From IMG/VR virus record IMGVR_UViG_3300031857_000110: 64,000 bases of DNA, one strand, 5' to 3'. Below are positions 3,627-63,569 of this stretch, one piece after another; the stretch's first letter is position 1; every line of letters begins with the position of its first letter. The translations under genes and the position numbers were made by a program. Below the pieces are notes generated by a model. The model was not told the origin of the DNA. It did no database searches and worked only from the letters and a program-made list of their open reading frames with translations. This DNA is from a virus.

Positions 3627-6600
3627 GTGCATAAGTTATTTTATGCACTAAGAATGGGGTTATCAAGACTTAGCCAACTGTTATCAAATATAACCGGAAG
3701 AACTTTATATGTAAACCCTGATTCAATAGATGCAACAGATTCTATTGAAAATCGTGGCAATTCTCCAACAAGACCTTTTAATGGTCTAAACCGTGCAATC
3801 GCAGAAGCTGTAAGATTCTCATATCAAACTGGACCAAATAATGATAGATTTGCTAGATGCACCATTATTCTTTCCCCTGGTTATCATAGAGTAACTAATC
3901 GCCCTGGATGGATTCCAGATGGTTCAAATAATTTCATATTAAGAAACGGAACAACTTCAAGTAATTTCTCTCAATGGGATATTAATACTAATTTTGATTT
4001 TAATTCAAGCAATAATGCACTCTATAAATTAAATTCAATACATGGTGGAATTTTTCTACCTCGTGGTGTTAGCATTATTGGTCAAGATTATAGAAAAACT
4101 ATAATTGTTCCAGATTATATTCCAAATCCTGAAAATGATTTAATTGAAAGATGTGGAGTTTTTCTTCTTACTGGTCAGAACTTTATTAATGAAATAACCA
4201 TTGAAGACCCTTCAGAGAGTGTTTATATTGATTACACAAATAATAGATATTCTCCAAAATTTTCACAACATAAATTAACAAACTTTGAAATGGCAGATGG
4301 TGTAAATCCAGTTGCCATAAATGATGGAATTATTGAATATTCATCTACTAGAACCGATCTTCAAATGTATTATGAGAAGATCGGTCTAGTTTTTGGTGCA
4401 TCTTCAGGTAGAGAAATAAAACCAGATTATCCCTCATCTTCAGTTGATATTCAACCAAGAATTGATGAATATAGAATTGTTGGTTCAAGAGGAAAGGAAG
4501 TCTTATTAAGTGCAATACAAGCTGGAAATGGTATTACCGCCACAACCACAATTACTGCAACTCTCTCAGAGCCTATTAATGATTTAGATGTAAATACTCC
4601 AATTAGAGTTCAAGGTGTTCCAGTTTCTGGATATGACGGCCAATTTATAATTAAACAAATCATTAGTCCAACTCAAGTAGTTTATGAAGTTTCAGTTGCT
4701 CCAATAGTTGCAAATCCATCTTTAGCTTCATCAACTGCAACTTTAAATATTTCTGTTGATACTATCACATCTTCTTCGCCTTATCTTTTTAATCTAGCAA
4801 GTAAAACTGTTTGGGGGAGAAATGGCCTTGATGTTGATGGCTCTAAAATTTCTGGCTTTAAGTCAGTTGTAGTAGCTCAATTTACTGGAATTGGCCTACA
4901 AAAAGATCCCAAAGCATTTGTAAAATATAATACAGCTTCTGGAATTTTTGAAGATTTTTCTGCTTCAGGTAACGAAAATATTCAAACATCTAGTAGAGCA
5001 TATTATAAACCCTCTTATGAAAACTTTCATATTAAGGCGAGTAATGATGGTTATGTTCAAGTAGTTTCAGTATTTGCTATCGGTTATGCCCATCAATTTT
5101 TATCAGAAAGTGGTGCAGATCAATCCATCAATGCTTCAAACTCTAATTTTGGTTCAAAAGCCTTAGTTTCTCGTGGATTTAGAAGTTCAGCATTTGTTCG
5201 TGATGATGTTGGTTATATTACACACATTATTCCACCGAAAGAAATTAAAACTACTGAAAATGCAATCACATACGATTCAATTGATGTTGGCATTACAACC
5301 TCAGTTGGACTAGCATCTCGCTTGTATTTTTATAATAAAAAATCTCTCGCTTCTCCCCCAGATTCTGTCATTGAAGGATTTAGAATTGGTGCAAACCCTT
5401 ATGATTCATTAAGAGTTGTTATTAATTCTAGAGAATATTTTTCAACAATTGTGATGCCAAACTCGGCTAAAACGGGTGAAAAATCATATTCTGTTGGTAG
5501 AAGTAATGCTGGAATCAATAGTATCACTTCAGATACATTTACATTAACTGAAACTCATACATTTGTATCTGGGGAATCTGTAAGAGTTATTAGTGAAACT
5601 GGGCAACTTCCAAATAGTCTAAATTCTGGATTGTATTATGTCATTACTACTGGTAATCCAAATGAAATTAAACTTGCTCAAACCTTCACAGATGCCTTAA
5701 CAGGAACAGAACTGTCTGTGAGCCCCTCTGGGGGGCCTCTGAGCATCGTTAGTCGGGTCTCAGACAAAGTGGCCGGAGAAATTGGACATCCTATTCAATT
5801 TGATCCTAATAATGGTTGGTATATCACTGTAGCAGTTTCTTTTGATAATCTTTTAAATAGCATCTATTATAGTTTGAATACAGTTTCAAGAATAGCGACT
5901 CAAAGAACATATTTTTATCGTAGAAATGACAATCGTAGTTTGGGTGATACAATATATAAGCTTCGTTATGTTATTCCATCATCTGTTGATGCGGCTAGAC
6001 CTCCTCTTGACGGCTATATTATTCAAGAGACTAATAGTACAATTGGCAAATCAAATACTGAAGTTGAGTCACAATTTAATCCATCAACAACTACATTAAA
6101 TTCAACATTCCAACTAAGAAACCAAAAGTTGATTGCCAATGCAAGTTGGTCAGCAAATACTGCAACTTTTGAATGTGAAGTTTCTCATAAACTCTCCATT
6201 GGTTCTGAAGTTGAAATAAAAAATGTAAAGAGCACTAATAATACAACTAGCCTAGATAACTTAGGTTATAATGGAACATTCATTGTTACTGAGATTGTTA
6301 ATGGAAAAATATTCAAAGTCATCCTTGAAACTAATCCTGGAACATTTACAAACAACACATCACAAAGAACCGTAGATTCACCTTATTTTATAAGAAAAAA
6401 ATATAATAATATCTTCTACATTTATAAAGTTGAAGAGACTAAAAAACATATTCCCGGTGTTCAAGATGGAGTTTATTATCTTACTATACTGAATTCGTCA
6501 AATTATCCTGCAGTAGAACCCTTTAGGAATAAAGGATATTCTCAACCAATTCAAAATCTTTATCCTCAGAAGAATAGGGACAATCCAATTTCTGATCCAA

Positions 6601-9600
6601 AGGAAACGGCTTGTTATACTCTTCCTGATCCTCTTGGGCAGGTTGTTGTAAATAATCCACAATACTCACTCACAAAAGAAACTTTACAAAGAGTTTTTCT
6701 TGAGAATGCTATTGGTATTGGTGTCACAAATATCATTTCAAATAGTGCTGGAACCGCTCACACAATTTATACCACATTAGATCATGGACTTGATCCAATT
6801 ACTTCAGTTTCAATTACGTCTCCTGGAAATGGTTATGGAATTGGATCTGGGAGTAATGAAACTTACTATAATGCTAAATTAGTTAATATTTCTTCATCCG
6901 GTGAAAATGCAACAGCGAGTATTATTGTAAATTCAAGTGGATCTATCTCTAGTATTCGTATTATGGATGGTGGCAGCAATTATAATGTTGGAGATAGATT
7001 AAGTGTGGTTGGAATTGCAACGACAACTGGATATACAGTTGGAATTGTAAGTGTTGCATCAATTTATAGTCATGTTGGAGAAACAATAAAGGTCAATAAA
7101 ACTTTAGACCGATACAATACCAGTTATAGAATTACTGGAATTACAAGTAGTAGAGCGATTCAAGTAAGTTCTGCCTCTTCAATAATCTCTCCATCTATAT
7201 CTGGAATTGGAAGTGTTTCAATTGGACAATGTTATGCTGAATTGACCGGAAAAGCCATTGCAATCTCATCAGTCGTCCATTCATCTGGAATTGCAACTAT
7301 AACAACAATTGATTCACATGATTTATACGTTGACAATAAAATTCTTTTTGGTGGATTTACTGAAAGTCCATTTAATAGAGAGTTTTTAGTGAATGGTGTT
7401 GTTGGTCTCAATACATTTACAGTAGCTACAGGTAGTACAAATATTTCTGTATCTTTCACTCAAACTCCATATGCCTATAGACAAGGTGCAGCTTCTAATG
7501 GTGGCTCTTATACTAATGACAATGAAGGTTTAAGAACTAGAATGATTCCTTTATATTCTGGAATCACTACAACTTTATCTGGAAACATTAATTCCACTAT
7601 AACTACAATTAATGTTTCAAATGCAGTTAATTGTGGTCTAAAAATTGGAGACTATTTACAAATTGATGAAGAATTTGTAAGAATTTCAACAACAGTTGTT
7701 TCCAATACCCTTACTGTTTTTCGTGGGGTTTTGGGTTCAAGAAGTTCTTCACATTCTTCTGGAGCTATTGTTTATAAGATTGGCATTGTTCCCATTGAAC
7801 TTAGACGCAACTCTTTACTTCGGGCAAGTGCACATACATTTGAATATAATGGCTTTGGATCTGGAAATTATTCATCAGCTCTACCAGATAGACAAGATAG
7901 AACCTTATCCCAACAGGAAGAATTATTAGCACAATCAACCAAAGAAAATGGCGGCATCGTTGTTTTTTCTGGGATGAATGCAAATGGTAGTTTTTATGTT
8001 GGAAATAAAAAAGTTAATTCTGCAACTGGAACCGAAGAAATTTTTGAGACTCCAATACCTACTATTACTGGCGAAGATGTCAGTACATTAAGTGGTTACA
8101 ATAATGTAAATACATTTGAAGCGACTATTAATCGCTCTCTGTTTGTTGAAGGTGGGGCTAACAAAAATCTTATTTCACAATTTGATGGACCCGTTGTTTT
8201 TAATAATAAAATAGTTTCAAATTCTGAAAGAGGATTTGAAGCATCTTCAATGCTATTATATGGTCAAGGATTAACACCAAGAAATTATACAATTGGTTCA
8301 TCTGAACCGAAATTATCTGGAAATCCTGGTGATGTTCAATATAATTCAGAGCCAATAAGTGGTGGATTTTTAGGTTGGGTCTATACCACAAATAATCGTT
8401 GGGAAAAATTTGGAAAAATCGGAAGCAGTGGATTATCTGTTGATAATAGTGTCGGAGTTTCTAGTAATGGCTCTTTTGTTGGACTTTCAACTCTTATTGA
8501 CTTTAAGACAAGTGGAATTGTTCTGACTTCTTCATATGATTCAGTAAGCGGGATTACAACATTAAATTTTTCTGGTGCTTCACCTTTAGGTAATAGTATT
8601 GGTATTTCAACTGGTTCTAATAATTTTGTTGGAATGGCAACTCAAATTAATTTTGTCGGTAGTCCAAATATTGATATAATTGGAACTGGTGGAACGGGAA
8701 TTAATACAATAAGAGTCGGAATTTCATCTACTTCTTCAATATTAGCTTCAGGTTTCATTAAAAGAGGTGCAACCGGAACCAATTTCTTAAAAGCTGATGG
8801 GTCAGATGCAACCATTACTTACAATGAGGTTACCAATGCCTTAGGTTATGTTCCTGCAAATTCAGGTTCAGTCTCTGGTGGTTCTGAAACTGGTAATTCA
8901 ATTATTTTAGATCAATTATCATCTTTTAATGGAATTACTTCTACATTTGATTTAAAACTTAATGGGAATCTTTTTGTTCCCCCTGGTGGACCTGCTAATT
9001 TAATTGTATCTCTTGGCGGAATTATTCAAAGGCCAGGAACTGATTATTTTATTCCTCAAAATGCTGGAATTAATACAAGCAAGATACAATTTACTGATGT
9101 ACCTTTATCTGGTCTTTCACACTTTATTGTTAGTCTTGGTGGTCAAGGATCCCTATTAAGTAATGGATCTTGGAACTCTAAAGGAGATTTAGTTGTTGGT
9201 CTTACTGATAATAATGCAGGTATTTTAAGTGTTGGTGCTAATGGTCAGGTTCTTACCGTTGATAGTAATTCTCCAGTTGGAGTAGCTTGGACTGATGGCC
9301 CAAAAATAATTTTAGCTGGATCTCAAAATACAAGCAGTGGAAATTCAATTAGTTATACAGACATTCCAAGCTGGGCTAAAAAAATTACAATATCATTTGA
9401 AGGGGTTGGTATTAATGGTTCTGGAGATATTCTAATTCAATTAGGAACTAATAGTATAATAACTTCTGGATATGAATCAACAAGTTCAAAAGTTAGTACG
9501 GCTGTTGCAACAATAAATTCAACCAATGGATTCATTGTTGAGAGTGATGGTTTCACTGCCCTAATAGGTGGCCATTTTACTTTAACTACAAATGGAGGAA

Positions 9601-9761
9601 ATAAGTGGATTAGTAGTCATACTATGAGAGGTGGCCTTTCTGCTTCTTATTTCGGAGCTGGAAATGTTACATTATCTTCATTATTACAACAAATTCATAT
9701 TAGTATTACAAACTCAAATAGTTTTACTTCTGGTTCTATTAATGTCATTTACGAGGGCTAA
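3627..9761 (+). CDS. giant (2044 aa) Ser/Thr/Gly/Asn-rich structural protein, probable tail fibre or tailspike with N-terminal right-handed beta-helix-like region
   Basis: Single uninterrupted 6.1-kb ORF; N-terminus RGNSPTRPFNGLNRAIAEAV...ILSPGYHRV resembles tailspike or pectate-lyase-fold starts; S/T/G/N-rich, repetitive beta-rich composition. Confidence 0.8.
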   Translation: MHKLFYALRMGLSRLSQLLSNITGRTLYVNPDSIDATDSIENRGNSPTRPFNGLNRAIAEAVRFSYQTGPNNDRFARCTIILSPGYHRVTNRPGWIPDGSNNFILRNGTTSSNFSQWDINTNFDFNSSNNALYKLNSIHGGIFLPRGVSIIGQDYRKTIIVPDYIPNPENDLIERCGVFLLTGQNFINEITIEDPSESVYIDYTNNRYSPKFSQHKLTNFEMADGVNPVAINDGIIEYSSTRTDLQMYYEKIGLVFGASSGREIKPDYPSSSVDIQPRIDEYRIVGSRGKEVLLSAIQAGNGITATTTITATLSEPINDLDVNTPIRVQGVPVSGYDGQFIIKQIISPTQVVYEVSVAPIVANPSLASSTATLNISVDTITSSSPYLFNLASKTVWGRNGLDVDGSKISGFKSVVVAQFTGIGLQKDPKAFVKYNTASGIFEDFSASGNENIQTSSRAYYKPSYENFHIKASNDGYVQVVSVFAIGYAHQFLSESGADQSINASNSNFGSKALVSRGFRSSAFVRDDVGYITHIIPPKEIKTTENAITYDSIDVGITTSVGLASRLYFYNKKSLASPPDSVIEGFRIGANPYDSLRVVINSREYFSTIVMPNSAKTGEKSYSVGRSNAGINSITSDTFTLTETHTFVSGESVRVISETGQLPNSLNSGLYYVITTGNPNEIKLAQTFTDALTGTELSVSPSGGPLSIVSRVSDKVAGEIGHPIQFDPNNGWYITVAVSFDNLLNSIYYSLNTVSRIATQRTYFYRRNDNRSLGDTIYKLRYVIPSSVDAARPPLDGYIIQETNSTIGKSNTEVESQFNPSTTTLNSTFQLRNQKLIANASWSANTATFECEVSHKLSIGSEVEIKNVKSTNNTTSLDNLGYNGTFIVTEIVNGKIFKVILETNPGTFTNNTSQRTVDSPYFIRKKYNNIFYIYKVEETKKHIPGVQDGVYYLTILNSSNYPAVEPFRNKGYSQPIQNLYPQKNRDNPISDPKETACYTLPDPLGQVVVNNPQYSLTKETLQRVFLENAIGIGVTNIISNSAGTAHTIYTTLDHGLDPITSVSITSPGNGYGIGSGSNETYYNAKLVNISSSGENATASIIVNSSGSISSIRIMDGGSNYNVGDRLSVVGIATTTGYTVGIVSVASIYSHVGETIKVNKTLDRYNTSYRITGITSSRAIQVSSASSIISPSISGIGSVSIGQCYAELTGKAIAISSVVHSSGIATITTIDSHDLYVDNKILFGGFTESPFNREFLVNGVVGLNTFTVATGSTNISVSFTQTPYAYRQGAASNGGSYTNDNEGLRTRMIPLYSGITTTLSGNINSTITTINVSNAVNCGLKIGDYLQIDEEFVRISTTVVSNTLTVFRGVLGSRSSSHSSGAIVYKIGIVPIELRRNSLLRASAHTFEYNGFGSGNYSSALPDRQDRTLSQQEELLAQSTKENGGIVVFSGMNANGSFYVGNKKVNSATGTEEIFETPIPTITGEDVSTLSGYNNVNTFEATINRSLFVEGGANKNLISQFDGPVVFNNKIVSNSERGFEASSMLLYGQGLTPRNYTIGSSEPKLSGNPGDVQYNSEPISGGFLGWVYTTNNRWEKFGKIGSSGLSVDNSVGVSSNGSFVGLSTLIDFKTSGIVLTSSYDSVSGITTLNFSGASPLGNSIGISTGSNNFVGMATQINFVGSPNIDIIGTGGTGINTIRVGISSTSSILASGFIKRGATGTNFLKADGSDATITYNEVTNALGYVPANSGSVSGGSETGNSIILDQLSSFNGITSTFDLKLNGNLFVPPGGPANLIVSLGGIIQRPGTDYFIPQNAGINTSKIQFTDVPLSGLSHFIVSLGGQGSLLSNGSWNSKGDLVVGLTDNNAGILSVGANGQVLTVDSNSPVGVAWTDGPKIILAGSQNTSSGNSISYTDIPSWAKKITISFEGVGINGSGDILIQLGTNSIITSGYESTSSKVSTAVATINSTNGFIVESDGFTALIGGHFTLTTNGGNKWISSHTMRGGLSASYFGAGNVTLSSLLQQIHISITNSNSFTSGSINVIYEG

Positions 9762-16774: not shown

Positions 16775-17923
16775 ATGAATTTACTTAATGGCATTGTAGA
16801 TATATTCCCATCAATAGAACCACAAAATTTTTTGGAAACTCCAAAAAGAATTAAACTTGGATTTGATCCAACAACAGATTTTTTACATTTAGGTCATGCT
16901 GTTCTTTTAAGAAAATTAAGGCAATTTCAAAATGAAAATCATACTCCTGTAATAATTATAGGTGACTTTACTGCAAGAATTGGAGATCCAACAGGAAAAT
17001 CAAAAACTAGAAAACAATTAACCAAAGAAGAAGTAGAATTCAATACCAATGAATTTTTGAATACTCTTTCAAATTTTATTGACCCCGAAAAATCTGAAAT
17101 TATTTTTAATTCTAAACATTTAGAACAATTATCTCTATCTACAATTATACAATTACAATCATTGGTAACAGTAAATCAACTCCTAGCGAAAAGGGATTTT
17201 CATCAAAGATTTGAATTACAAAGCCCTATCAGTTTGCATGAATTTATGTATCCACTACTTCAAGGATATGATAGTCATGTAATATCATCTGAAATAGAAC
17301 TTGGAGGAATTGATCAAAAATTTAACATCTCAATGGGTAGAGATGTTCAAAGACATTTCAAAAATAAAAATGAACAAATTGGAATGTTAATGCCAATTTT
17401 ATGTGGTACTGATGGTGCCAATAAAATGTCTAAAAGTTTGAATAATGCAATAAAAATTGATGAACATCCTTTAATAATGTTTTCTCAATTGGAAAAAATT
17501 CCAGATAATTTAGTAGATGAATATATTCTTCTACTCACCGACTGTAATTTGGGAGATTTTTCTCCAGATCCTAGAGAAAGGCAAAAACAAATGGCCTTTG
17601 AGATTGTTTCAGAATTTTATGGTTCTGAAGTTGCTCTAAAGTCTATGAATGAATCTCAACAGATCGTTTTGTCTAATTCAAATATATCAGATGTCCCAGA
17701 GATAGTTGTTTCACATTTGCAGTTTCCATTACCTCTTGCAACTTTATTGAGAGAAACTAAATTATCAGATAGTTCATCTGCAGCAAGAAGATCAATTCGT
17801 TCAGGTTGTATTAAATTAGATGGGATTAAAATTACAGATGAAAATATTATGGTTGATATAAATGATATTGAAAATAAAATTATAAGAATGTCAAAGAACT
17901 CTTTTCATCGTTTTGTCATGTGA
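16775..17923 (+). CDS. tyrS: tyrosyl-tRNA synthetase (class I aaRS with C-terminal S4-like domain)
   Basis: HLGH (HIGH) motif, KMSKS motif, GGIDQ, C-terminal ARRSIRSGCIKLDGIKITD S4-like; length 382 aa. Confidence 0.75.
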   Translation: MNLLNGIVDIFPSIEPQNFLETPKRIKLGFDPTTDFLHLGHAVLLRKLRQFQNENHTPVIIIGDFTARIGDPTGKSKTRKQLTKEEVEFNTNEFLNTLSNFIDPEKSEIIFNSKHLEQLSLSTIIQLQSLVTVNQLLAKRDFHQRFELQSPISLHEFMYPLLQGYDSHVISSEIELGGIDQKFNISMGRDVQRHFKNKNEQIGMLMPILCGTDGANKMSKSLNNAIKIDEHPLIMFSQLEKIPDNLVDEYILLLTDCNLGDFSPDPRERQKQMAFEIVSEFYGSEVALKSMNESQQIVLSNSNISDVPEIVVSHLQFPLPLATLLRETKLSDSSSAARRSIRSGCIKLDGIKITDENIMVDINDIENKIIRMSKNSFHRFVM

Positions 17924-32688: not shown

Positions 32689-34233
32689 ATGTCACTTAAA
32701 ATTTCCGAAAAAGCTAATCTTAATTATCTTGCAAAAGTTGTAAAACTAACAAATCTTAGAAAGCATCCAAATGCAGATAAATTACAGATAACCACTATTG
32801 ATGGAAATAATATCATTACTGGCTTAGATGCTAAGGATGGTGATCTTTATGTGTATTTTTCTCTTGAAAGTTCAATCAATTTGAATTATATTTCATTTTC
32901 AAATGGATTTAGGGAAAGCTCTTTAAATACTAATAAAGAAGTTGTTGGATTTTTTGAACCAAGAGGTAGAGTGCGGGCGATCTCTCTTCGGGGTGAAAAA
33001 TCATGTGGATATATTTGTCCAGTAAAAAATATCAATGAATGGCTTAATACCTTTACGTCTTTCAATATTACTGAAGAACATCAAGATGTAGAATTTGATA
33101 TGATTTGTGATACGGTAATGTGCGAAAAATATATAAATCGTGAAGCACTTCTTAAAATCTTAAAGGCCAATAAAACTCCAAAGGGTATTAAAAAATTAGC
33201 AAAAGAAACAAAGCTAATTGAAGGTCAATTCGCATTTCATGTTGATACTGCACATCTTCAAAAATATATCTATAAAATCAATCCGCATGATATCATTCAT
33301 ATTTCCAAAAAGCTTCATGGAACTTCTGCTATTGTTGGAAATATTTTGTGTAAGCGTAAATTATCGCTTAAAGATTCCATTGCAAGATTTTTTGGGGTAA
33401 ATGTAAATGAAACAGAATATCAATTGATTTGGTCTTCTAGAACAGTTGTAAAGAATGGCAACTATTATTTGTCTTGGCAAGAAACCCTCTGGAAAAATTT
33501 TCTATATTATCTCAGCAGTTACAAAAAACCATTTGAATCTTGGGTATCCTTGATTTTAGCTGAAGGTGACCAGAAAAGAGAAGAATTTTTTGGTGATTTG
33601 CAATATCATAGATCAACTCCTTTGCAACTCTATAAAGATTTGCAAGAGTGGAGTAAAATTATCAAAAATCCACAAACATCTAATCATTATTATTCATATG
33701 ATATTTGGAGGGATGTTGCTATCCAGCTTGAAGATTTTCTTTATAAAGGAATGACATTTTATTGTGAAGTTGTTGGTTATACAAAGGAAGGAGCATATCT
33801 TCAAAAGGGTTATGACTATGGTTGCGATCTAGGAAACTTTGCAATTTACATCTATCGCATCACATATACAAATCCTTCAGGGAAGATATTTGAATTTTCA
33901 ACTCAGCAAGTGAAGGCATATTGCAATAAACTTGGCCTAAACATGGTCCCAGAACTTTATTATGGGAGAGCAAAAGACCTATTTGACATTCCTGTAGATG
34001 ATAATTGGCATGATAATTTTATTGAATTAGTTAGCCAGAATTATCTTGAAAAGGATTGTGACATGTGTGTAAATAAAGTTCCAGATGAAGGTATTGTACT
34101 CCGTAAGGAAGATATTGACATTGAACCATACAAATATATAAGTTTTGCATTTAAACTGCGAGAAACAAAAAATGCAGATAATGGCGAAATTGATCTAGAA
34201 ACAATTGAATCTGAACAGTTAGGTGATGCATAA
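32689..34233 (+). CDS. RNA ligase (Rnl2-like nucleotidyltransferase) with N-terminal tRNA-binding OB (EMAP/Myf-like) domain
   Basis: N-terminus LRKHPNADKLQITTIDGNNIITGLDAKDGDLYV matches the tRNA-binding domain signature; motif I KLHGTS, motif IV EGIVLRKE, motif V FKL. Confidence 0.65.
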   Translation: MSLKISEKANLNYLAKVVKLTNLRKHPNADKLQITTIDGNNIITGLDAKDGDLYVYFSLESSINLNYISFSNGFRESSLNTNKEVVGFFEPRGRVRAISLRGEKSCGYICPVKNINEWLNTFTSFNITEEHQDVEFDMICDTVMCEKYINREALLKILKANKTPKGIKKLAKETKLIEGQFAFHVDTAHLQKYIYKINPHDIIHISKKLHGTSAIVGNILCKRKLSLKDSIARFFGVNVNETEYQLIWSSRTVVKNGNYYLSWQETLWKNFLYYLSSYKKPFESWVSLILAEGDQKREEFFGDLQYHRSTPLQLYKDLQEWSKIIKNPQTSNHYYSYDIWRDVAIQLEDFLYKGMTFYCEVVGYTKEGAYLQKGYDYGCDLGNFAIYIYRITYTNPSGKIFEFSTQQVKAYCNKLGLNMVPELYYGRAKDLFDIPVDDNWHDNFIELVSQNYLEKDCDMCVNKVPDEGIVLRKEDIDIEPYKYISFAFKLRETKNADNGEIDLETIESEQLGDA

Positions 34234-53806: not shown

Positions 53807-53890
53807 GCAACACTGATCATTCAATAGCTTGACAGCAGCTCAAAAACCCATTAACTTACTTTCATCCACATCAGGGAGGTTTCCCCGCTC

Positions 53891-54541
53891 ATGATTACTG
53901 AATCTGAAGTCAATTCTGCGGTTTATACGCTTCTGCGGTCTAAGAATCTTGAGCATCTTAATGCTCATTCGGGGCTTATTGCCAGGATCAGGAGAGAATG
54001 GAATTCTTTCAAGAAATCTGCAATAAGTCTAGGGTTTAACCCAGAAGAACACCGCTTAACTGCATACAATATTGCTGAAGGTGATCTATGGGATCATGCT
54101 GCACATGACTGGATTTTAACTAGAGAAGGTTGTGGGTGTGGTTTCTGGGATGGTGATTGGGAAAAGAATATGGGAGAAAAGCTAACCGAATTGTCCAAGA
54201 CTTTCGGGGAGTTGGATGTATATTCTGAACGGGGCTATGTTTATAGCGAGTTCCCATGTAATATCAATAAGATTGCAACTTATTGTTTTATTAAATATAA
54301 AAACTTCAGCCAACGCGGGGCCAGCCTCATTCAATTCCCACAGAAAAACGCAACTTCATATCTGGTTAAATTACCTGAGATTGATAAACACTGGAGAAGG
54401 ATTAACTGTAGATGTGTATCTATAGATGGTGGGTTTGAATTTATAGATTGGTGTCATGTGAAGGGAGAAAAAATTTGTCTAGGGAATATATTAGGTAGAA
54501 TTTATGTACCTGTAGATGATGTTGTTAAAGTTGAACTATAA
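53891..54541 (+). CDS. hypothetical protein, family B (paralog of 56882..57508)
   Basis: Alignable throughout: EVNSAVY...RIRREWNSFKKSAISLGFNPEEHR...DLWDHAAHDWIL...IATYCFIKYK...KLPEIDKHWRRI; GGGAGGTTTCCCC leader. Confidence 0.6.
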   Translation: MITESEVNSAVYTLLRSKNLEHLNAHSGLIARIRREWNSFKKSAISLGFNPEEHRLTAYNIAEGDLWDHAAHDWILTREGCGCGFWDGDWEKNMGEKLTELSKTFGELDVYSERGYVYSEFPCNINKIATYCFIKYKNFSQRGASLIQFPQKNATSYLVKLPEIDKHWRRINCRCVSIDGGFEFIDWCHVKGEKICLGNILGRIYVPVDDVVKVEL

Positions 54542-54619
54542 TGGATTCTAATCAATGGAGGCTTGACAGCGAGAGATAAACCCCTTACAGTAACAGAGTA
54601 ATCCACCACACTCAAAACA

Positions 54620-55156
54620 ATGTCAACAAAAAGAGAGCTTCAAAGTGAAATTGAAAGTTTGAAAAGAGACATAGATTGCATAACCAATAGAATTAAAGAA
54701 AGAGAAGAAGAATTATCTAAGTATTCAGCACCAGATCGCATTAGAGATGCTGATGTTGGTGAAACATTGGCAGATGGTTGTGTATTGATAGATTTTCTAC
54801 GTGGCAAAGACCGAGCATGGGCAATTCTAGGCGCACCCGTAGAAACCATTCAGTACACTACGCTTAAAGATATGGATAAAATTAAAAAAGAATTATCATT
54901 AGGCCCAGAATGGTTTCTACCTACACACCAAATTGCTAAAAGTATTTGCATTGATCCTTGCCATTTTGAACTTCTCCCGGTGGGTGAGTATTGGACATCT
55001 ATTTCTGAGAATGAATATATTCTCATTGCGGAGAATAACGCGCTTGTATTTGCCACCTTAAGATACGCGAATAACAACAATCTTTCTAGACTGGCTTGGT
55101 ATTGTAAGATTGTTGAGTTTAGTGTGCATCCATCATACGATTATTTACCTTATTGA
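54620..55156 (+). CDS. hypothetical protein
   Basis: ORF behind promoter 54563. Confidence 0.45.
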   Translation: MSTKRELQSEIESLKRDIDCITNRIKEREEELSKYSAPDRIRDADVGETLADGCVLIDFLRGKDRAWAILGAPVETIQYTTLKDMDKIKKELSLGPEWFLPTHQIAKSICIDPCHFELLPVGEYWTSISENEYILIAENNALVFATLRYANNNNLSRLAWYCKIVEFSVHPSYDYLPY

Positions 55157-55238
55157 TCTATAAGAACGACTTATCAATAAAAGCTTGACAAGCCATAATT
55201 CTTCCCCTATCATTAAAAAGTCTTCAACACTTGAATCA

Positions 55239-55532
55239 ATGACTGATCAAACTGCTCGCCAGCGTGCAATCCATGCAGCTAACATGCAATGGGCTGCACA
55301 CCTAAAGCGAACCGCTCAAAAAGCTGCTCAAGATGCAGATAAAGCTTCTCTAGCAGCCTCTCAAGCACATGACCGAGTAAACACTCTTCGTGCAGCATTA
55401 GCGGCTGCTCATGCTAATCTTCAAAGTTCAATAGCAGCAGCCATCACAACACAAGATATTTCAAATAATGCTAAGCTAAATGCCATAGATGCTCGTACAG
55501 ATTACCATACTTTTATGGATAGTATCAAATAA
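55239..55532 (+). CDS. Ala-rich coiled-coil protein (GC-rich)
   Basis: Start trimmed; the TTG at 55185 is the -35 box. Confidence 0.45.
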   Translation: MTDQTARQRAIHAANMQWAAHLKRTAQKAAQDADKASLAASQAHDRVNTLRAALAAAHANLQSSIAAAITTQDISNNAKLNAIDARTDYHTFMDSIK

Positions 55533-55539
55533 TTGTATC

Positions 55540-55695
55540 ATGAAAAACGGTTCATATTGGTCGGATAAAAGAGACATTCCAAGCGGAAAATATGGTAAGA
55601 CTAAGCTGCCTGACTGTGAATGTACTGGTATATTTACATGTAGAGTCTGTTTAGATTATAGTATTATTAGGGACAAAATCTTTCCAAACTCATGA
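55540..55695 (+). CDS. small Cys-rich protein (51 aa)
   Basis: CECTGIFTCRVC; ATGA overlap with the next gene. Confidence 0.3.
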   Translation: MKNGSYWSDKRDIPSGKYGKTKLPDCECTGIFTCRVCLDYSIIRDKIFPNS

Positions 55696-56180
55696 AAAGT
55701 TTTCACCAACAACTGGCAACATTCAAAGCTCTTGACAAACAAAAAAGAGAGAATCCTTTTCGTAAGGAATGGATAAATTCACAGTCTCTCCATTATACAG
55801 AAAGATGGAAAAAAGAAGCTGATATTATTAAAAGGTATGTTGAATTATCACGAGGAAAGTTTCCTGATTTTGTTCTAGAGAATTTTTATTGCTTAAAATA
55901 TATGATAACAGGGGAAGCTTTTAATCTTGGCTGGGGTTTTGAATGTAATAATGTAATTTATTGGAAAGATACAAAAAGAGAGATAATGGCTGAATGGATG
56001 GATAGATATAATCACACATGCGATTATCTAGGACCAATTAAAAGAGTAACCATGCTGGAAAGTATGCTGTATAATAGATTCAATTTTATAGGGCCAATTG
56101 AACGAAAAATCTTGCATGAAAGTATGCGGAGTGACTCATATGGAATTCTAATGCCTCAAGGTCTTGACAAAAGCACTTGA
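55692..56180 (+). CDS. hypothetical protein; 3' end contains the next promoter
   Basis: ORF. Confidence 0.45.
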   Translation: MKSFHQQLATFKALDKQKRENPFRKEWINSQSLHYTERWKKEADIIKRYVELSRGKFPDFVLENFYCLKYMITGEAFNLGWGFECNNVIYWKDTKREIMAEWMDRYNHTCDYLGPIKRVTMLESMLYNRFNFIGPIERKILHESMRSDSYGILMPQGLDKST

Positions 56181-56219
56181 GACATTCTAGTATAAACAAG
56201 TAATCCACAGAGGGTTCCC

Positions 56220-56726
56220 ATGGCTCCTATTCACTTCCACCGCGACAATAATTTGAAAGAAGTAATTGTTGCAACAAATAAAATCAATAAAGTATGTAAT
56301 ATTATTCAACCGCAGATCATAGAAACTTTAAGACCTTTCAGGGGCAAAAAAATAATTAAGGTAACTCCTTATCGTACTCTAACGAGTAAAGTTTTTGAAG
56401 TTCTCAATCCAGTTTTAGAAGAATACCGAAAAACAATGGGAGGTATGTATATCTTGGATTATCAATCTAATTATAGTCTGTCTTTGAAAGTTCAGGTGCC
56501 GTATAAATTGCATTATGATGATGGGGGGTTTCAAGGCAGTTTGTCTCATTTTCTTTATTTGGGTTTTTTGGAAAACAGTACTTACCTTAAGGACGAAGAT
56601 CTAAAGTTATGTAAGAGTAAGGAAGATTATGATTTTGATGAAATTAAGTTGAAAATGGTGCAGCTTAAACAGTTGGAAGAACAATTTGATGCATTAAAGA
56701 GTGAATTATCGCGCTTCTTGCGATAA
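56220..56726 (+). CDS. hypothetical protein
   Basis: ORF behind promoter 56164 with GAGGGTTCCC leader. Confidence 0.5.
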   Translation: MAPIHFHRDNNLKEVIVATNKINKVCNIIQPQIIETLRPFRGKKIIKVTPYRTLTSKVFEVLNPVLEEYRKTMGGMYILDYQSNYSLSLKVQVPYKLHYDDGGFQGSLSHFLYLGFLENSTYLKDEDLKLCKSKEDYDFDEIKLKMVQLKQLEEQFDALKSELSRFLR

Positions 56727-56751
56727 GGAATAGACCATATTACTCCCCGGT

Positions 56752-56816
56752 TTGCTAGTCTTACTGGGGATTTTTTGTGTTTAATGTTTTAATGTGACAC
56801 TTTAAGAACTGGCACA
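56752..56816 (+). repeat. about 65-nt reiterated element GCTAGTCTTACTGGGGATTTTTTGTG(T/C)TTAATGTTTTAATGTGACACTTTAAGAACTGGCACA, copy 1 (second copy at 57907..57971)
   Basis: Near-identical copies read directly. Confidence 0.85.
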
Positions 56817-56881
56817 TTCTTAACCACCTTTCCGCCCTTACCTGCTGTAGGATAAACAAGCAAACAAAGGGAGGTTCCCCC

Positions 56882-57508
56882 GTGACTACACAATCTGAAG
56901 TTAATGCTGCAATTGCAGCATTGTATATTTCCGATGAATTTGATGATAAAAAGGTTACTAAATCTCTAAACTCTCGTATAAAAAGAGAATGGTTATCATT
57001 CAAAGCTTCTGCTATAAATATAGGTTTTGACCCTGAAAAACATAGAACATTTACGCTAGATAAATCTAAAGAAGACTTATGGGGTTATGTTGCACATGAC
57101 TGGATAATGATTCGTAATTTGGGATTTTTAGACGGCCATTGGCAAAAAGATAAGGCAGAGAAATTAGCAGAAATTGCAAAATCTTTTGGCCGGTTGGAAG
57201 TATTTCAACAGGGTGATTATATCTTTCCACGTTCAGATGAGTATATCAATAAGATTGCAACTTACTGCTTTCTTAAGTATAAAGAAGTGTCACACTCACA
57301 TTTGAATAAAGATGGTTATGGTAAGACTTCATCGCCATATATGATTAAGTTACCCGAGATTGATAATCAATGGAGGAGAATATATTCTTTATGCTATTCT
57401 AATACATCAACCGAAATCATTACAATAAAAGGTGAAACATTATTATTGGGGAATCTATTATCGGATTTTTGTATAGCAGTTGGAGATACAGTTAAGATTA
57501 ATTTGTAG
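56882..57508 (+). CDS. hypothetical protein, family B (GTG start)
   Basis: Paralog of 53891..54541. Confidence 0.6.
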   Translation: MTTQSEVNAAIAALYISDEFDDKKVTKSLNSRIKREWLSFKASAINIGFDPEKHRTFTLDKSKEDLWGYVAHDWIMIRNLGFLDGHWQKDKAEKLAEIAKSFGRLEVFQQGDYIFPRSDEYINKIATYCFLKYKEVSHSHLNKDGYGKTSSPYMIKLPEIDNQWRRIYSLCYSNTSTEIITIKGETLLLGNLLSDFCIAVGDTVKINL

Positions 57509-60547: not shown

Positions 60548-60889
60548 TTGACTGCAACAATCTATCAACAATTACTTGAGCACTCTAAAGGTTTAATAGA
60601 GATTCATGAAACTGATTTAACCATTCACGATCAAAACAGAATAAAGACATTTGAGCCAGGTTCAAAATGGTTATGGGTTTGTTATCAGTGTGGAACATAT
60701 TTAACAAAATGGGAGAGTAAATTCACATCAGAACTTTTATATTATATCGTGGAGAGGAATGGCTGTCCAGATTGCAAAGTCTTCATCATTGAATGTAATG
60801 AAGAATTAAATGGAAATGTTATAGAGAAACAAGCAGCAGAATTGTGGATTCAAAAGAAATATGAGAATTCCTTATCAATAAAGGCTTGA
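60548..60889 (+). CDS. zinc-ribbon protein (CYQCG...CPDCK), TTG start
   Basis: Leader AAGGGAGGTTCC then TTG. Confidence 0.4.
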   Translation: MTATIYQQLLEHSKGLIEIHETDLTIHDQNRIKTFEPGSKWLWVCYQCGTYLTKWESKFTSELLYYIVERNGCPDCKVFIIECNEELNGNVIEKQAAELWIQKKYENSLSIKA

Positions 60890-60941
60890 CAAACCATACT
60901 CTTACCTGTAGTATTCTTTCACTCACATCAGAGAGGTTCTC

Positions 60942-61346
60942 ATGTTTTTAGGTAAACATCAAAAAGGTCTCATTACTTATCTCGTAAAACGGAAAAATTA
61001 CACTGGCATTTGTGGCCAAGATATGAGAGATGTTCTTAATAGGCTAGTAAAAAGAGGTATAATTAAGTATAAAAAAATTGAGTATAATTATGGAACATAT
61101 GAATATGAAGTAACATTAACTATTCCAGATATTCATTACATTACATCTGAAGAAGCTAATAATATGAATAGTTTTCAGCGATATAAAGAGCTTAGGGGTG
61201 AACCTTATAGAGAAGGATTCTTTTTTATTACAAACCCACAATTACTTTCTAATAAGACACATTATTCACGACAACATGAAGAATTTGGACCATTCTCTAG
61301 TATAGAAGAAGCTGTTGTATTTTATGCAAGTAATAGAAAATTTTAA
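60942..61346 (+). CDS. hypothetical protein
   Basis: Promoter 60886 plus leader. Confidence 0.5.
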   Translation: MFLGKHQKGLITYLVKRKNYTGICGQDMRDVLNRLVKRGIIKYKKIEYNYGTYEYEVTLTIPDIHYITSEEANNMNSFQRYKELRGEPYREGFFFITNPQLLSNKTHYSRQHEEFGPFSSIEEAVVFYASNRKF

Positions 61347-61530
61347 TAAAATGTGTTTTTAATCGTTTTTATTGATAATCATTCTCAATAAGGTGTTTTA
61401 AGTGTTTTATTGATCTTATTGATAATCATTCTCAATAAGGTGTTTTAAGTATATTGAAGGTCTTAAATGTTTTATTGATAATCATTCTCAATAAGGTATT
61501 TTAGGTATTTTAGGTATTTTAAGTGTCTTA
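61347..61530. repeat. three copies of an iteron-like palindrome TTATTGATAATCATTCTCAATAAGGT(G/A)TTTTA(A/G)GT plus GGTATTTTA tandem units
   Basis: Perfect inverted repeat TTATTGA/TCAATAA inside each of 3 direct repeats; followed at 61538..61639 by the distant inverted repeat ATCTTAGCGG ... CCGCTAAGAT. Confidence 0.85.
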
Positions 61531-61658
61531 TTGGTCTGATGATCTTAGCGGACTAGGACCACACACTCTAAGACACTCAAGGACAGAAGAAAAACCGGCA
61601 CAATAAAACCCACAGAACGATCATAACCGCTAAGATGTAAAAGTCATTCAATCATTCC

Positions 61659-61874
61659 ATGGCCACCCACAACATTTTTCCAGCCTACAAAGGGCTAGTT
61701 AAAGTGTCCAAACTGCGCAAAAAGATTGGCCAACAAAGATATACAATCTCAGCAAAAATCACCCCAGACTTTACATTTGAAACAATAATTCCAGCATATA
61801 ACAGAGAGGATGCAATTTTCCGTGCTACAGCATACTTTCCAAATGGAAGATTCGTCAAAGTGAATAACAAATGA
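61659..61874 (+). CDS. hypothetical protein
   Basis: ORF. Confidence 0.4.
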   Translation: MATHNIFPAYKGLVKVSKLRKKIGQQRYTISAKITPDFTFETIIPAYNREDAIFRATAYFPNGRFVKVNNK

Positions 61875-61962
61875 GACTGTGACACTTTAAGAACTGGCAT
61901 GTTCTCAACCACCTTTCCGCCTTTAGCTGTAGGATATGGAGGCAAACAAAGGGAGGTTTCCC

Positions 61963-62184
61963 GTGAAATTGATCAGTAATCACGAGGATAACATTAAAAG
62001 GGAGCTTTATACAATTGAAAATAATGGGGATAAATTTACACTCATTTGGTATGTTAATCCAACTACAAAAACAATTATTGATGTTGAACTGAGAGATGCA
62101 TCCGGGGTATCTGTTTTTGATCCTGCCTTACTTGAGGAGATTGAAACCTTTGTAGTTGATACACTTATTGAACGTCAATCTTAA
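61963..62184 (+). CDS. hypothetical protein (GTG start after GGGAGGTTTCCC leader)
   Basis: Leader homology. Confidence 0.4.
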   Translation: MKLISNHEDNIKRELYTIENNGDKFTLIWYVNPTTKTIIDVELRDASGVSVFDPALLEEIETFVVDTLIERQS

Positions 62185-62264
62185 GATAAGCATTTCTTAT
62201 CATAGACTCTAGAGTGCTCAAAGTGTGCTAGAGTCTTAACTATAAATCAAGGGAGGTTCCCGCA

Positions 62265-62648
62265 ATGGCTAAAGAAACCACATCACAGATTGTTTCAAAG
62301 TATAAGTGTCTCATTGTAAACATTTTAGCAGGAGCTAAAATAACCAAACCGACGGGTCTTGAGCTTATGGGGCAATTGAGTAATTTGTGGTCAGATGAAG
62401 AATTTAGCAGCTTGTCATTATATGCAAAGGAAGAACTATTTGAATACTCAGACAATAAAAGGATACAGCTTACTGATGAATATACAGTATCACTTTACAC
62501 TGATGATAATGGCAATAAAAGTATATCAAACAAAACCGAATTTGCATGTGAGCCATCCATTTATTGGTATGAAGTCAAAGAGATATGCTCAAATGATGGA
62601 ACAATGGTAATAATCAAAACACCTACAGATAAAGTATATCTTGAGTAA
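62265..62648 (+). CDS. hypothetical protein
   Basis: Leader GGGAGGTTCCCGCA then ATG. Confidence 0.5.
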   Translation: MAKETTSQIVSKYKCLIVNILAGAKITKPTGLELMGQLSNLWSDEEFSSLSLYAKEELFEYSDNKRIQLTDEYTVSLYTDDNGNKSISNKTEFACEPSIYWYEVKEICSNDGTMVIIKTPTDKVYLE

Positions 62649-62969: not shown

Positions 62970-63569
62970 ATGGCTAATTTGATTGATTCTGGAATTGACT
63001 ACGGAATGGGACGGACTAATGTTGATATGGATAATGGGATCCGTTACGGCTTCATTCCCGCTAATGATCTTGCATCCCACGCATGGGATACTATCATGAA
63101 CGACGGTGAAGATTTAGACTATACGGAAGCAATTGAAAATTTGAAAGATGAATTAGCTAGAACGATAAAAAGCACAGTGGAAGACTATGATCCCCGTTTC
63201 GACTGCAAACAAGCAGCAGAGGATATAGTGGATGCAATGGAATTTATTCTAGAGTCTAGCGGAGATTGCACAAGGTACAAATACGAAAATAAAGGGTTGG
63301 AATTTTCTACGTTATCCGATGGCGATTTAGTAGTGATAAAATCCCCGTACTTTACCTACTGCGGCCACTGTTCCCCTTGCGCGCCTGGTGGAGGTTATCT
63401 TAAGTCTGGGGGATCTGTAAAGACCTACTGTCTTGGACCGGAATGGTTTGACGAGAATTCCCCTATACCCTACGTTTGCTATAGAGTGTCAGACGGATCC
63501 CCCTTGTCTCCTCATGACTACTTGCATCCACAAGACGGGCTAGTTTTAACTGTTTCAATAGAACCTTAA
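62970..63569 (+). CDS. hypothetical protein (Cys-rich C-terminus)
   Basis: ORF. Confidence 0.45.
   Translation: MANLIDSGIDYGMGRTNVDMDNGIRYGFIPANDLASHAWDTIMNDGEDLDYTEAIENLKDELARTIKSTVEDYDPRFDCKQAAEDIVDAMEFILESSGDCTRYKYENKGLEFSTLSDGDLVVIKSPYFTYCGHCSPCAPGGGYLKSGGSVKTYCLGPEWFDENSPIPYVCYRVSDGSPLSPHDYLHPQDGLVLTVSIEP

Follow-up and report, generated by a model that had tools for sequence, protein, structure and literature searches.

We analysed a 64,000-nucleotide (nt) stretch of viral DNA (IMG/VR virus record IMGVR_UViG_3300031857_000110; hereafter the window), in which the interval 61347-61658 carries an array of palindromic direct repeats that probably serve as operators for a host regulator of the Fur family. 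The interval lies between an open reading frame (ORF) for a 134-amino-acid (aa) protein (60942-61346) and one for a 71-aa protein (61659-61874). It holds no ORF of at least 30 aa, in agreement with an earlier reading made from the letters of this DNA (the sequence-only reading), which had placed the repeats in noncoding DNA between small genes. The array stretch is AT-rich, with 23% GC. The features of the locus are listed below; L250 and L252 are contigs of relatives of this phage.

60886..60914, + strand: consensus early promoter of the 134-aa gene, TTGACA-17-TAGTAT, scoring 10/12
60942..61346, + strand: upstream 134-aa gene, encoding a possible winged-helix protein and rival candidate binder of the array
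61369..61394, no strand: box 1, TTATTGATAATCATTCTCAATAAGGT, with the 7-1-7 core TGATAATCATTCTCA at 61373-61387 and one mismatch to the motif TGATAATnATTATCA
61407..61415, + strand: half-box TTATTGATC, abutting box 2 and reiterated in L252, as read from the sequence
61416..61441, no strand: box 2, identical to box 1
61472..61497, no strand: box 3, identical to box 1 and the sole box with promoter-like hexamers around it
61494..61521, + strand: 9-nt tandem units AGGTATTTT, 3.1 copies with 100% matches
61527..61533, + strand: half-box CTTATTG between array and leader, conserved in the window and L250
61537..61658, + strand: C/A-rich leader, G-poor on the + strand, 5' of the 71-aa gene
61542..61551, + strand: left arm ATCTTAGCGG of an inverted repeat, 10 base pairs (bp), conserved in L252 and reading ATCTTAGTGG in L250
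61627..61636, + strand: right arm CCGCTAAGAT of the inverted repeat, including the invariant TAAGAT at 61631-61636
61659..61874, + strand: 71-aa gene, the first gene 3' of the array, conserved, with five homologous clusters at 55-100% identity

The 26-mer TTATTGATAATCATTCTCAATAAGGT is present as three exact copies on the + strand, with start-to-start spacings of 47 and 56 nt. It was found nowhere else in the 64 kilobases (kb) of the window, even with three mismatches allowed, and the expected number was 0 (100 shuffles). Each copy has the form TTATTGA-N9-TCAATAA and is, in full, an 11-1-11 near-palindrome, TTATTGATAAT-C-ATTcTCAATAA, with one asymmetric position. The three direct repeats with an internal palindrome that the sequence-only reading had described are therefore real, as are its tandem units and its second inverted repeat; the 35-mer that it had counted three times is exact twice, and the third copy carries two mismatches (GGTATTTTAGGT). 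The spacers between the boxes consist of degenerate 9-nt units (AAGTRTTTT type, including the AGGTATTTT run) and half-boxes such as TTATTGATC, and the two arms of the inverted repeat each have a single site in the window, where none was expected by chance. Four independent public assemblies, among them a contig of 249,370 nt, carry this DNA with 100% identity, so the array is not an assembly artefact.

The window (GC about 34%, all sizeable ORFs on the + strand) is part of a T4-related freshwater cyanophage genome of about 249 kb, related to Synechococcus phages B3 and B23. One of its helicases has its best match in these two phages, at 56% identity. For a second helicase, 419 phage records match at E < 1e-10, again with B3/B23 best; nearly all of these records are named cyanophages (Synechococcus, Cyanophage or Prochlorococcus), and five are labelled just 'Marine'. 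Two window proteins contain a Kyano_Gp96 domain, and B3, which is classified in Kyanoviridae, has a tRNA-Leu(TAA) in common with the window. The helicase matches, the Kyano_Gp96 domains and the likeness to B3 together indicate an origin from a large T4-related cyanophage; the window has no nucleotide similarity to cultured phages. The array lies in the 50-64 kb part of the window, an early-type region of small genes with an upstream element of its own for each.

Relationship of the repeat to Fur-family boxes

The core of the repeat, TGATAATCATTCTCA, matches 13 of the 14 specified positions of the Fur-family 7-1-7 motif TGATAATnATTATCA in all three copies. When the 64 kb were scanned with this motif, the three boxes were the only strong matches, and two others were weaker. 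Alignment by hand with the classical Escherichia coli Fur 19-mer gave 15/19 matching positions; at three or fewer mismatches no match was found. For Anabaena sp. PCC 7120, the FurA consensus is AAATAAATTCTCAATAAAT and the footprinted furA autoregulatory operator is ATAAATATTCTCAATAAGC (PMC4005646). The phage box agrees with the autoregulatory box at 16 of 19 positions, including 12 contiguous nt in the right arm (ATTCTCAATAAG), and with the FurA consensus at 13 of 19.

The same sequence is widespread in bacteria. The exact 19-mer ATTGATAATCATTCTCAAT occurs at no fewer than 120 bacterial genome loci, at least, from many phyla, and the matches listed include Pelagibacteraceae, Paenibacillus and other Bacillales, streptococci, Shewanella and Verrucomicrobia. 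About nine in ten of the listed sites lie outside long ORFs, just 5' of genes. Fur-regulon families predominate among the 137 ORFs flanking the listed sites: Fe(III)-type solute-binding proteins (23), FecCD (10), siderophore-binding Peripla_BP_2 (9), AraC-type regulators (7), ABC-3 (6), FeoA/FeoB (3), FUR (2) and ZnuA (2). In metagenomes, the exact 24-mer of the box was found at 18 loci in about 11 contexts. It stands 2 nt and 7 nt before the start codon of Fur-family regulator genes (L255/L268 and L254/L264), in two contexts that are unrelated, with GC of 54% and 31%. A site 2-7 nt before a Fur-family gene has the arrangement that would be expected of an autoregulatory operator. The bacterial-genome context and the cyanobacterial FurA literature thus support the assignment of the three repeats as putative Fur-family boxes. 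The sequence-only reading had left a choice between an origin and a multi-operator regulatory region; it is the latter that gains support, and its likely binder can now be named.

Among the Pelagibacteraceae, several single-cell genomes (L109, L112, L141, L152, L173 and L210) have the 19-mer inside the end of a 278-aa frame, and the gene just after it encodes a 552-aa Nuo51-type protein (NADH dehydrogenase F-like, Fe-S). At other Pelagibacter loci the 19-mer precedes a gene for an Fe(III)-binding protein, with a second TGAGAATnnTTCTCA box.

Anabaena Zur sites, experimentally supported and predicted, include TGATAATCATTATCA, TGATAATCATTATCG and TGATAATAATAATCA (PMC10957091 Table S3), and the phage core matches TGATAATCATTATCA at 14 of 15 positions, which makes the metal sensed uncertain. 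The boxes might be operators for host FurB/Zur, so that the locus would respond to zinc rather than iron. The fur-family gene of L255 is followed by a gene for an ABC-transporter ATPase, a common zur-znu cluster arrangement, and ZnuA and ABC-3 genes are found among the bacterial neighbours of the 19-mer. However, the outward extension ATTCTCAATAAG matches FurA sites, whereas the flanks of the listed Zur sites differ, and the exact 19-mers listed from non-cyanobacterial genomes lie mostly beside iron-uptake genes. The outward extension of the palindrome (TCAATAAG) appears to favour FurA over Zur, and we consider a zinc operator unlikely.

Conservation of the array and recurrence of the box in other phages

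Relatives of the window phage were reached through the flanking proteins. The 92-kb contig L252, whose upstream-gene protein is 81% identical, has the same locus with five boxes, and contig L253 has at least two boxes before its end. The 24-mer is the same in all 10 copies counted across the window, L252 and L253, whereas the spacers vary both in length (47-83 nt) and in sequence, and the flanking genes of the window and L252 show 86-88% nucleotide identity. Boxes that stay identical amid diverged flanks and spacers argue for purifying selection on the box, and the change in copy number from three to five bears what would be a signature of unequal exchange. The leader (61537-61658) is 96.6% identical to L252 (3254-3377), above the level of the flanking genes, and about 70% identical to the more distant L250 (106-238). 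L250 starts at a box end (…CAATAAAGGT), followed by the 9-nt units and then the same leader. The 9-nt period is kept in the relatives with other sequence, as GTRTTTTAA in four to five copies in L252 and as six AAGGTCTTA units in L250. The presence of the repeats in related phages with conserved gene order had been put forward by the sequence-only reading as a check, and the outcome is mixed: the array is kept and expanded in close relatives (L252, five copies), and it is absent from the syntenic 50 kb of B3, the nearest cultured relative.

The box recurs beyond these relatives. The same 24-mer is present in the cultured Microcystis phage Mic1. Its whole genome (92.6 kb) has six Fur-like boxes, of which five are packed into 715 bp of the 3-kb noncoding, repeat-rich gp49-gp50 region; no homolog of the window proteins was detectable in Mic1. 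A second family of uncultured phages (L001, L002, L266, L267, L269 and L271) keeps the 24-mer and GGTGATTA, while the surrounding DNA diverges. L236, which is related to the window phage, has a divergent noncoding region of 590 nt with four to five degenerate units (TTATTGATAAtAATTCGTATcG…) and a perfect 23-mer palindrome; a TTGACA -35 hexamer follows 29 nt after the end of the palindrome. The 17-mer core was found in 108 viral contigs, and 19 of 96 distinct contexts have at least two boxes inside 400 nt, some with 6-10. When phages have a site but no proteins in common, a host factor that they share is the best explanation.

Several of these regions have a repeat structure of their own. The Mic1 noncoding region (L235 2263-5314; Mic1 record 53855-56906) contains several long direct-repeat families, e.g., GGTTTAAGTATTTATACTCATGGTGTCCCTGTCCTAACCACCCTCACAAGT in four copies, and two large inverted copies of an element of about 250 nt near L235 3690-3900 and 5020-5250. 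Published descriptions of the Mic1 genome cover other repeats and do not mention the Fur-like boxes or these repeats. At 4320-4760 of L236, four to five degenerate units (cccTTATTGATAAtAATTCGTATcGTTTATTGTGTTT) are followed by three CAACAGCAACCACCAATAA units, the reverse complement of preceding TTATTGTTGTTATTG motifs, and then by the perfect 23-mer palindrome. Clusters of 5-10 Fur-like boxes were seen in L075 (1-310), L005 (2217-3020), L021 (190-575) and L091 (5756-6057). The L075 cluster adjoins a terminase-like gene.

A replication origin, the other function named by the sequence-only reading, was weighed against this distribution. The repeats would then be iterons for a phage initiator or sites for host factors, with an AT-rich unwinding region whose melting the inverted repeats would aid. 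Several direct repeats with internal dyads in a noncoding stretch of 23% GC have this look, the box copy number differs between strains, and the array adjoins the gene for a possible winged-helix protein. There is also a sharp local switch in strand composition at about 61530 (300-bp scale), where the top strand turns from G/T-rich to C/A-rich. In L075 four DnaA boxes (TGTGGATAA) are interspersed among the Fur-like boxes, and in L005 a cluster of 9-10 boxes adjoins reiterated TTATCAACA/TTATTCACA motifs, a hint that a single control or origin region may, in some phages, hold host sites for both Fur and DnaA. In the window, however, no DnaA box lies within 1 kb of the array (6 in the window vs 12.5 expected), and the neighbouring genes include no recognisable Rep, primase or initiator family. 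The inflection in GC skew that the sequence-only reading had offered as a check is missing at the 2-kb scale, where cumulative skew rises monotonically through the site. With no DnaA boxes, initiator gene or large-scale skew inflection, an origin in the window is not supported. Moreover, iterons match their own initiator, whereas this box also turns up in unrelated phages and at bacterial Fur-regulon promoters and is therefore not an iteron peculiar to this phage. The 134-aa protein, too, has no detectable homolog in Mic1, L001 or L236. We judge an origin to be rather improbable.

Mic1 also bears on the idea of a centromere-like partition site. The F-plasmid sopC site, to which a ParB-type protein binds, consists of tandem units of about 43-50 bp that each contain a short palindrome. 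The array, with its 47-56-nt repeats each containing a dyad and its variable copy number, is alike in architecture, and Mic1, with its similar cluster, has genes for ParA and ParB. Yet the Mic1 par genes lie 23-47 kb from its box cluster, no ParA/ParB was present among the 25 listed of 41 Pfam families found in a scan of 109 window ORFs, and the identity of the Fur box explains the sequence without the idea of partition. A role of this kind is highly improbable.

Flanking genes, leader and promoter elements

The gene upstream of the array encodes another candidate binder. The 134-aa protein has weak Pfam matches to the TFIIE_alpha and Mnd1 helix-turn-helix domains (E about 0.02-0.09, below cut-off). 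Its structure model, with a helix-helix-strand-strand N-terminus, reached a predicted local distance difference test (pLDDT) score of 47, too poor for a fold search. Homologs of the protein were found in the close relatives L252 and L253 only, where gene and array co-occur. Single-sequence scans of viral contigs with the 134-aa protein and a 171-aa protein returned no relatives, and neither of these nor the 71-aa protein had a match in cultured phages. The 134-aa protein might bind the palindromes, the 9-nt units or the 10-bp inverted repeat and control the downstream gene, acting as a regulator of the phage's own; its gene adjoins the array, the weak winged-helix signals and the N-terminal model would suit DNA binding, and the 9-nt units and inverted repeat have no other assigned binder. 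Against this, no homolog was detectable, in the DNA examined, in Mic1 or the L001 family, which carry the 24-mer, or in L236, which carries the 23-mer. The box sequence is used at bacterial fur-family and iron-uptake promoters, the Pfam matches fall below cut-off and the model is unreliable at this pLDDT. That the array is its operator is improbable; the protein may bind the 9-nt units or the 10-bp inverted repeat.

Downstream, the 71-aa gene is a real gene, with five homologous clusters. Its AlphaFold model (pLDDT 81) has a beta-beta-beta-alpha-beta fold with no significant structural match in PDB or BFVD, and searches of protein families gave it no significant match either. No consensus sigma-70 promoter is visible in the leader, and the 71-aa gene has no visible Shine-Dalgarno sequence. 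The predicted RNA fold of the inverted-repeat region was not better than that of shuffled sequences (z = 0.24), and RNAalifold on three relatives counted no covariation. In L250, where the left arm is ATCTTAGTGG and the right arm CCACTTAAGAT, a C-to-T change is matched by a G-to-A change plus a 1-base insertion; this is one apparent compensatory change by manual reading, which depends on a 1-nt bulge and was not registered by the automated count. An Rfam search of 60800-62300 returned nothing relevant. The TAAGAT of the right arm (61631-61636) is the -10 hexamer of consensus promoters in the relatives L250 and L251.

The hexamers around box 3 form two promoter-like pairs, TTGAAG(61454)-17-GATAAT and TTGATA(61475)-16-TATTTT, each scoring 9/12. 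No + strand terminator was found in 60800-62300. Since none lies between the 60886 promoter and the array, transcripts from this promoter should run into the boxes.

Other recurrent elements were noted in the region. At least eight early promoters between 50300 and 62760 (e.g., 50370, 52142, 52655, 52967, 55170, 58881 and 60871) have a common upstream element, CT[G/T]ATCAATAA[G/A][A/G]GCTTGACA-N17-TAnnnT, with 13 matches vs 0.12 expected. The TTATCAATAA part of this element equals one arm of the Fur-like box and stands directly 5' of the -35 hexamer, and in several of these promoters an inverted repeat, ATAAGAGCTTGA…TCAAGCTCTTAT, spans -35 to -10. A second promoter class (about 57540, 59520, 60040 and 62690) reads CATAAGAGATGCTAATGCCTTAAGkgaTTGACAgatCCCCTTAAGGCATTCTAGTAT; the 12-nt inverted repeat AATGCCTTAAGG / CCTTAAGGCATT that brackets its -35 looks like an operator for some regulator. 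The third element, of about 90 nt, lies 5' of five genes (about 56790, 57940, 58270, 60460 and 61880). It reads GTGACACTTTAAGAACYGGCAC-N22-GCCCTTAGCTGCTGTAkrAT, has a strong AAGGGAGGTTCCC ribosome-binding site after it and is a candidate phage-specific promoter, perhaps a middle one. A stretched version of it, GACACT…AAGAA…CCGGCAC, is seen in the leader at 61569-61600.

Elsewhere in the window, the 199-aa ORF at 62970-63569, three genes 3' of the array, has a cysteine-rich stretch (…YCGHCSPCAPGGGY…) that could bind metal; the ORF has no family match. A gene set in the style of tRNA and RNA repair (2291-2374, 16775-17923, 32689-34233 and neighbours) comprises tRNA-Leu(TAA), a tyrosyl-tRNA synthetase, two RNA ligases, a PolyA_pol/CCA-adding head domain, cREC_REC and a P-loop kinase with AAA_33/Zeta_toxin/KTI12 matches. 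The window encodes helicases as well, and a 2044-aa ORF occupies 3627-9761. Among the 25 listed of the 41 Pfam families from the 109 window ORFs scanned, none was iron-related or FUR.

A putative host Fur-family operator array and known systems

The three boxes are, as judged from their sequence, identical, near-perfect, consensus-grade and tandem, in the early-gene region of a large cyanophage. We estimate a probability of about 65% that the repeats form an operator array for a host Fur-family regulator (FurA most likely, Zur possible), placed before the conserved leader and the 71-aa gene. The array suggests that the virus reads or manipulates host iron (or zinc) status at this site, rather than starting replication there.

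A number of observations weigh against this interpretation. A metal-related regulated gene is typical of Fur regulons, though not strictly defining, and the 71-aa product and the products of the next genes had no Pfam, PHROG or structural match to metal families. None of the boxes overlaps a conserved consensus promoter, and L252 does not share the weak hexamers seen at box 3. In the L001 family, about 190 nt separate the box from the nearest strong promoter, which lies downstream of it. No cyanobacterial genome was present among the 19-mer matches listed, which says little. Paralog typing placed the two Fur-family genes adjacent to the 24-mer below all NCBIfam cut-offs, the close match of the core to a Zur site counts on the same side, and the host is itself taken to be a cyanobacterium from the relatedness of the phage.

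The simplest working model, given that no terminator separates the 60886 promoter from the array, is a metal-dependent roadblock or operator. Metal-loaded host Fur dimers, FurA most likely, would occupy the array, as predicted from its sequence, and would block RNA polymerase that starts at box 3 or reads through from the 60886 promoter. Such a roadblock would keep transcription out of the leader and the 71-aa gene. Under host metal starvation, Fur would leave the DNA and the block would be relieved, so that the downstream early gene or genes would be expressed mainly then. As a side effect, or perhaps as the main purpose, each replicated genome would add three to five strong sites that soak up host Fur.

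If soaking up Fur were the main purpose, the array would be a decoy and not a gene switch, with identical maximal-affinity sites whose copy number (three to five per genome) would be under selection. Phage replication would multiply the sites a hundred-fold or more and titrate the host Fur pool, and the infected cyanobacterium would be forced into its iron-starvation programme of iron uptake and iron sparing. Identical consensus-grade copies, their variable number and the lack of a recognisable promoter overlap point to Fur titration, and this outcome fits several features of the array better than a roadblock does. Even so, a pure decoy has, in our estimate, only an outside chance. If it were true, the clusters in Mic1 and other phage contigs would amount to a general viral strategy in which host regulons are reprogrammed by DNA sites and not by proteins.

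Iron limits cyanobacterial growth in many lakes and oceans. No published account of Fur boxes in cyanophages, Mic1 included, came up in literature searches, nor any of a link between cyanophages and the host iron or zinc regulator. A conserved, expandable array in an abundant lineage of freshwater cyanophages would provide a concrete handle on the metal link between phage and host, and the similar cluster in cultured Mic1 offers a laboratory system. The array would bear on how viruses sense or rewire host metal homeostasis, on bloom dynamics and on bare DNA sites as manipulators.

Among known systems, the array resembles the bacterial multi-box Fur operators, such as those of furA and isiB of Anabaena sp. 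PCC 7120 (PMC4005646), in its 7-1-7 core and its AT-rich neighbouring sites, and its right arm is identical to a 12-nt piece of the furA operator. It differs from them in being viral and in having identical, consensus-grade copies where the bacterial ones are degenerate. Its boxes are spaced at 47-83 nt with 9-nt filler instead of forming overlapping hexamer arrays, have no recognisable promoter overlap or metal gene, and vary in number between strains.

In temperate coliphages, Fur controls the phage-borne stx1. In lambdoid coliphages, a Fur box precedes the cargo ('moron') genes sitABCD (PMC6969025). These phages are alike in carrying host Fur sites, by which phage-borne genes join the host iron regulon. 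Theirs is a single prophage-borne box, at the promoter of a bacterially derived gene for metal uptake or a toxin, whereas the present boxes form a tandem array in the early region of a large T4-related cyanophage, before a small phage-specific gene.

Cyanophages are known to carry PhoB boxes upstream of pstS/phoA and NtcA sites in promoters. Those sites likewise borrow a host nutrient-status regulator to time or tune phage genes; in the present case the nutrient would be iron or zinc, the perfectly conserved sites form an array, and no obvious auxiliary metabolic gene is at hand. Iteron origins and F-plasmid sopC share with the array tandem dyad-bearing repeats in AT-rich noncoding DNA and a variable copy number, but the core of the present repeat is a shared host-regulator box, and no cognate initiator or partition gene was found in the window. 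The putative operator array thus differs from the known phage Fur boxes in being tandem, perfectly conserved and variable in copy number, with a parallel cluster in an unrelated cyanophage.

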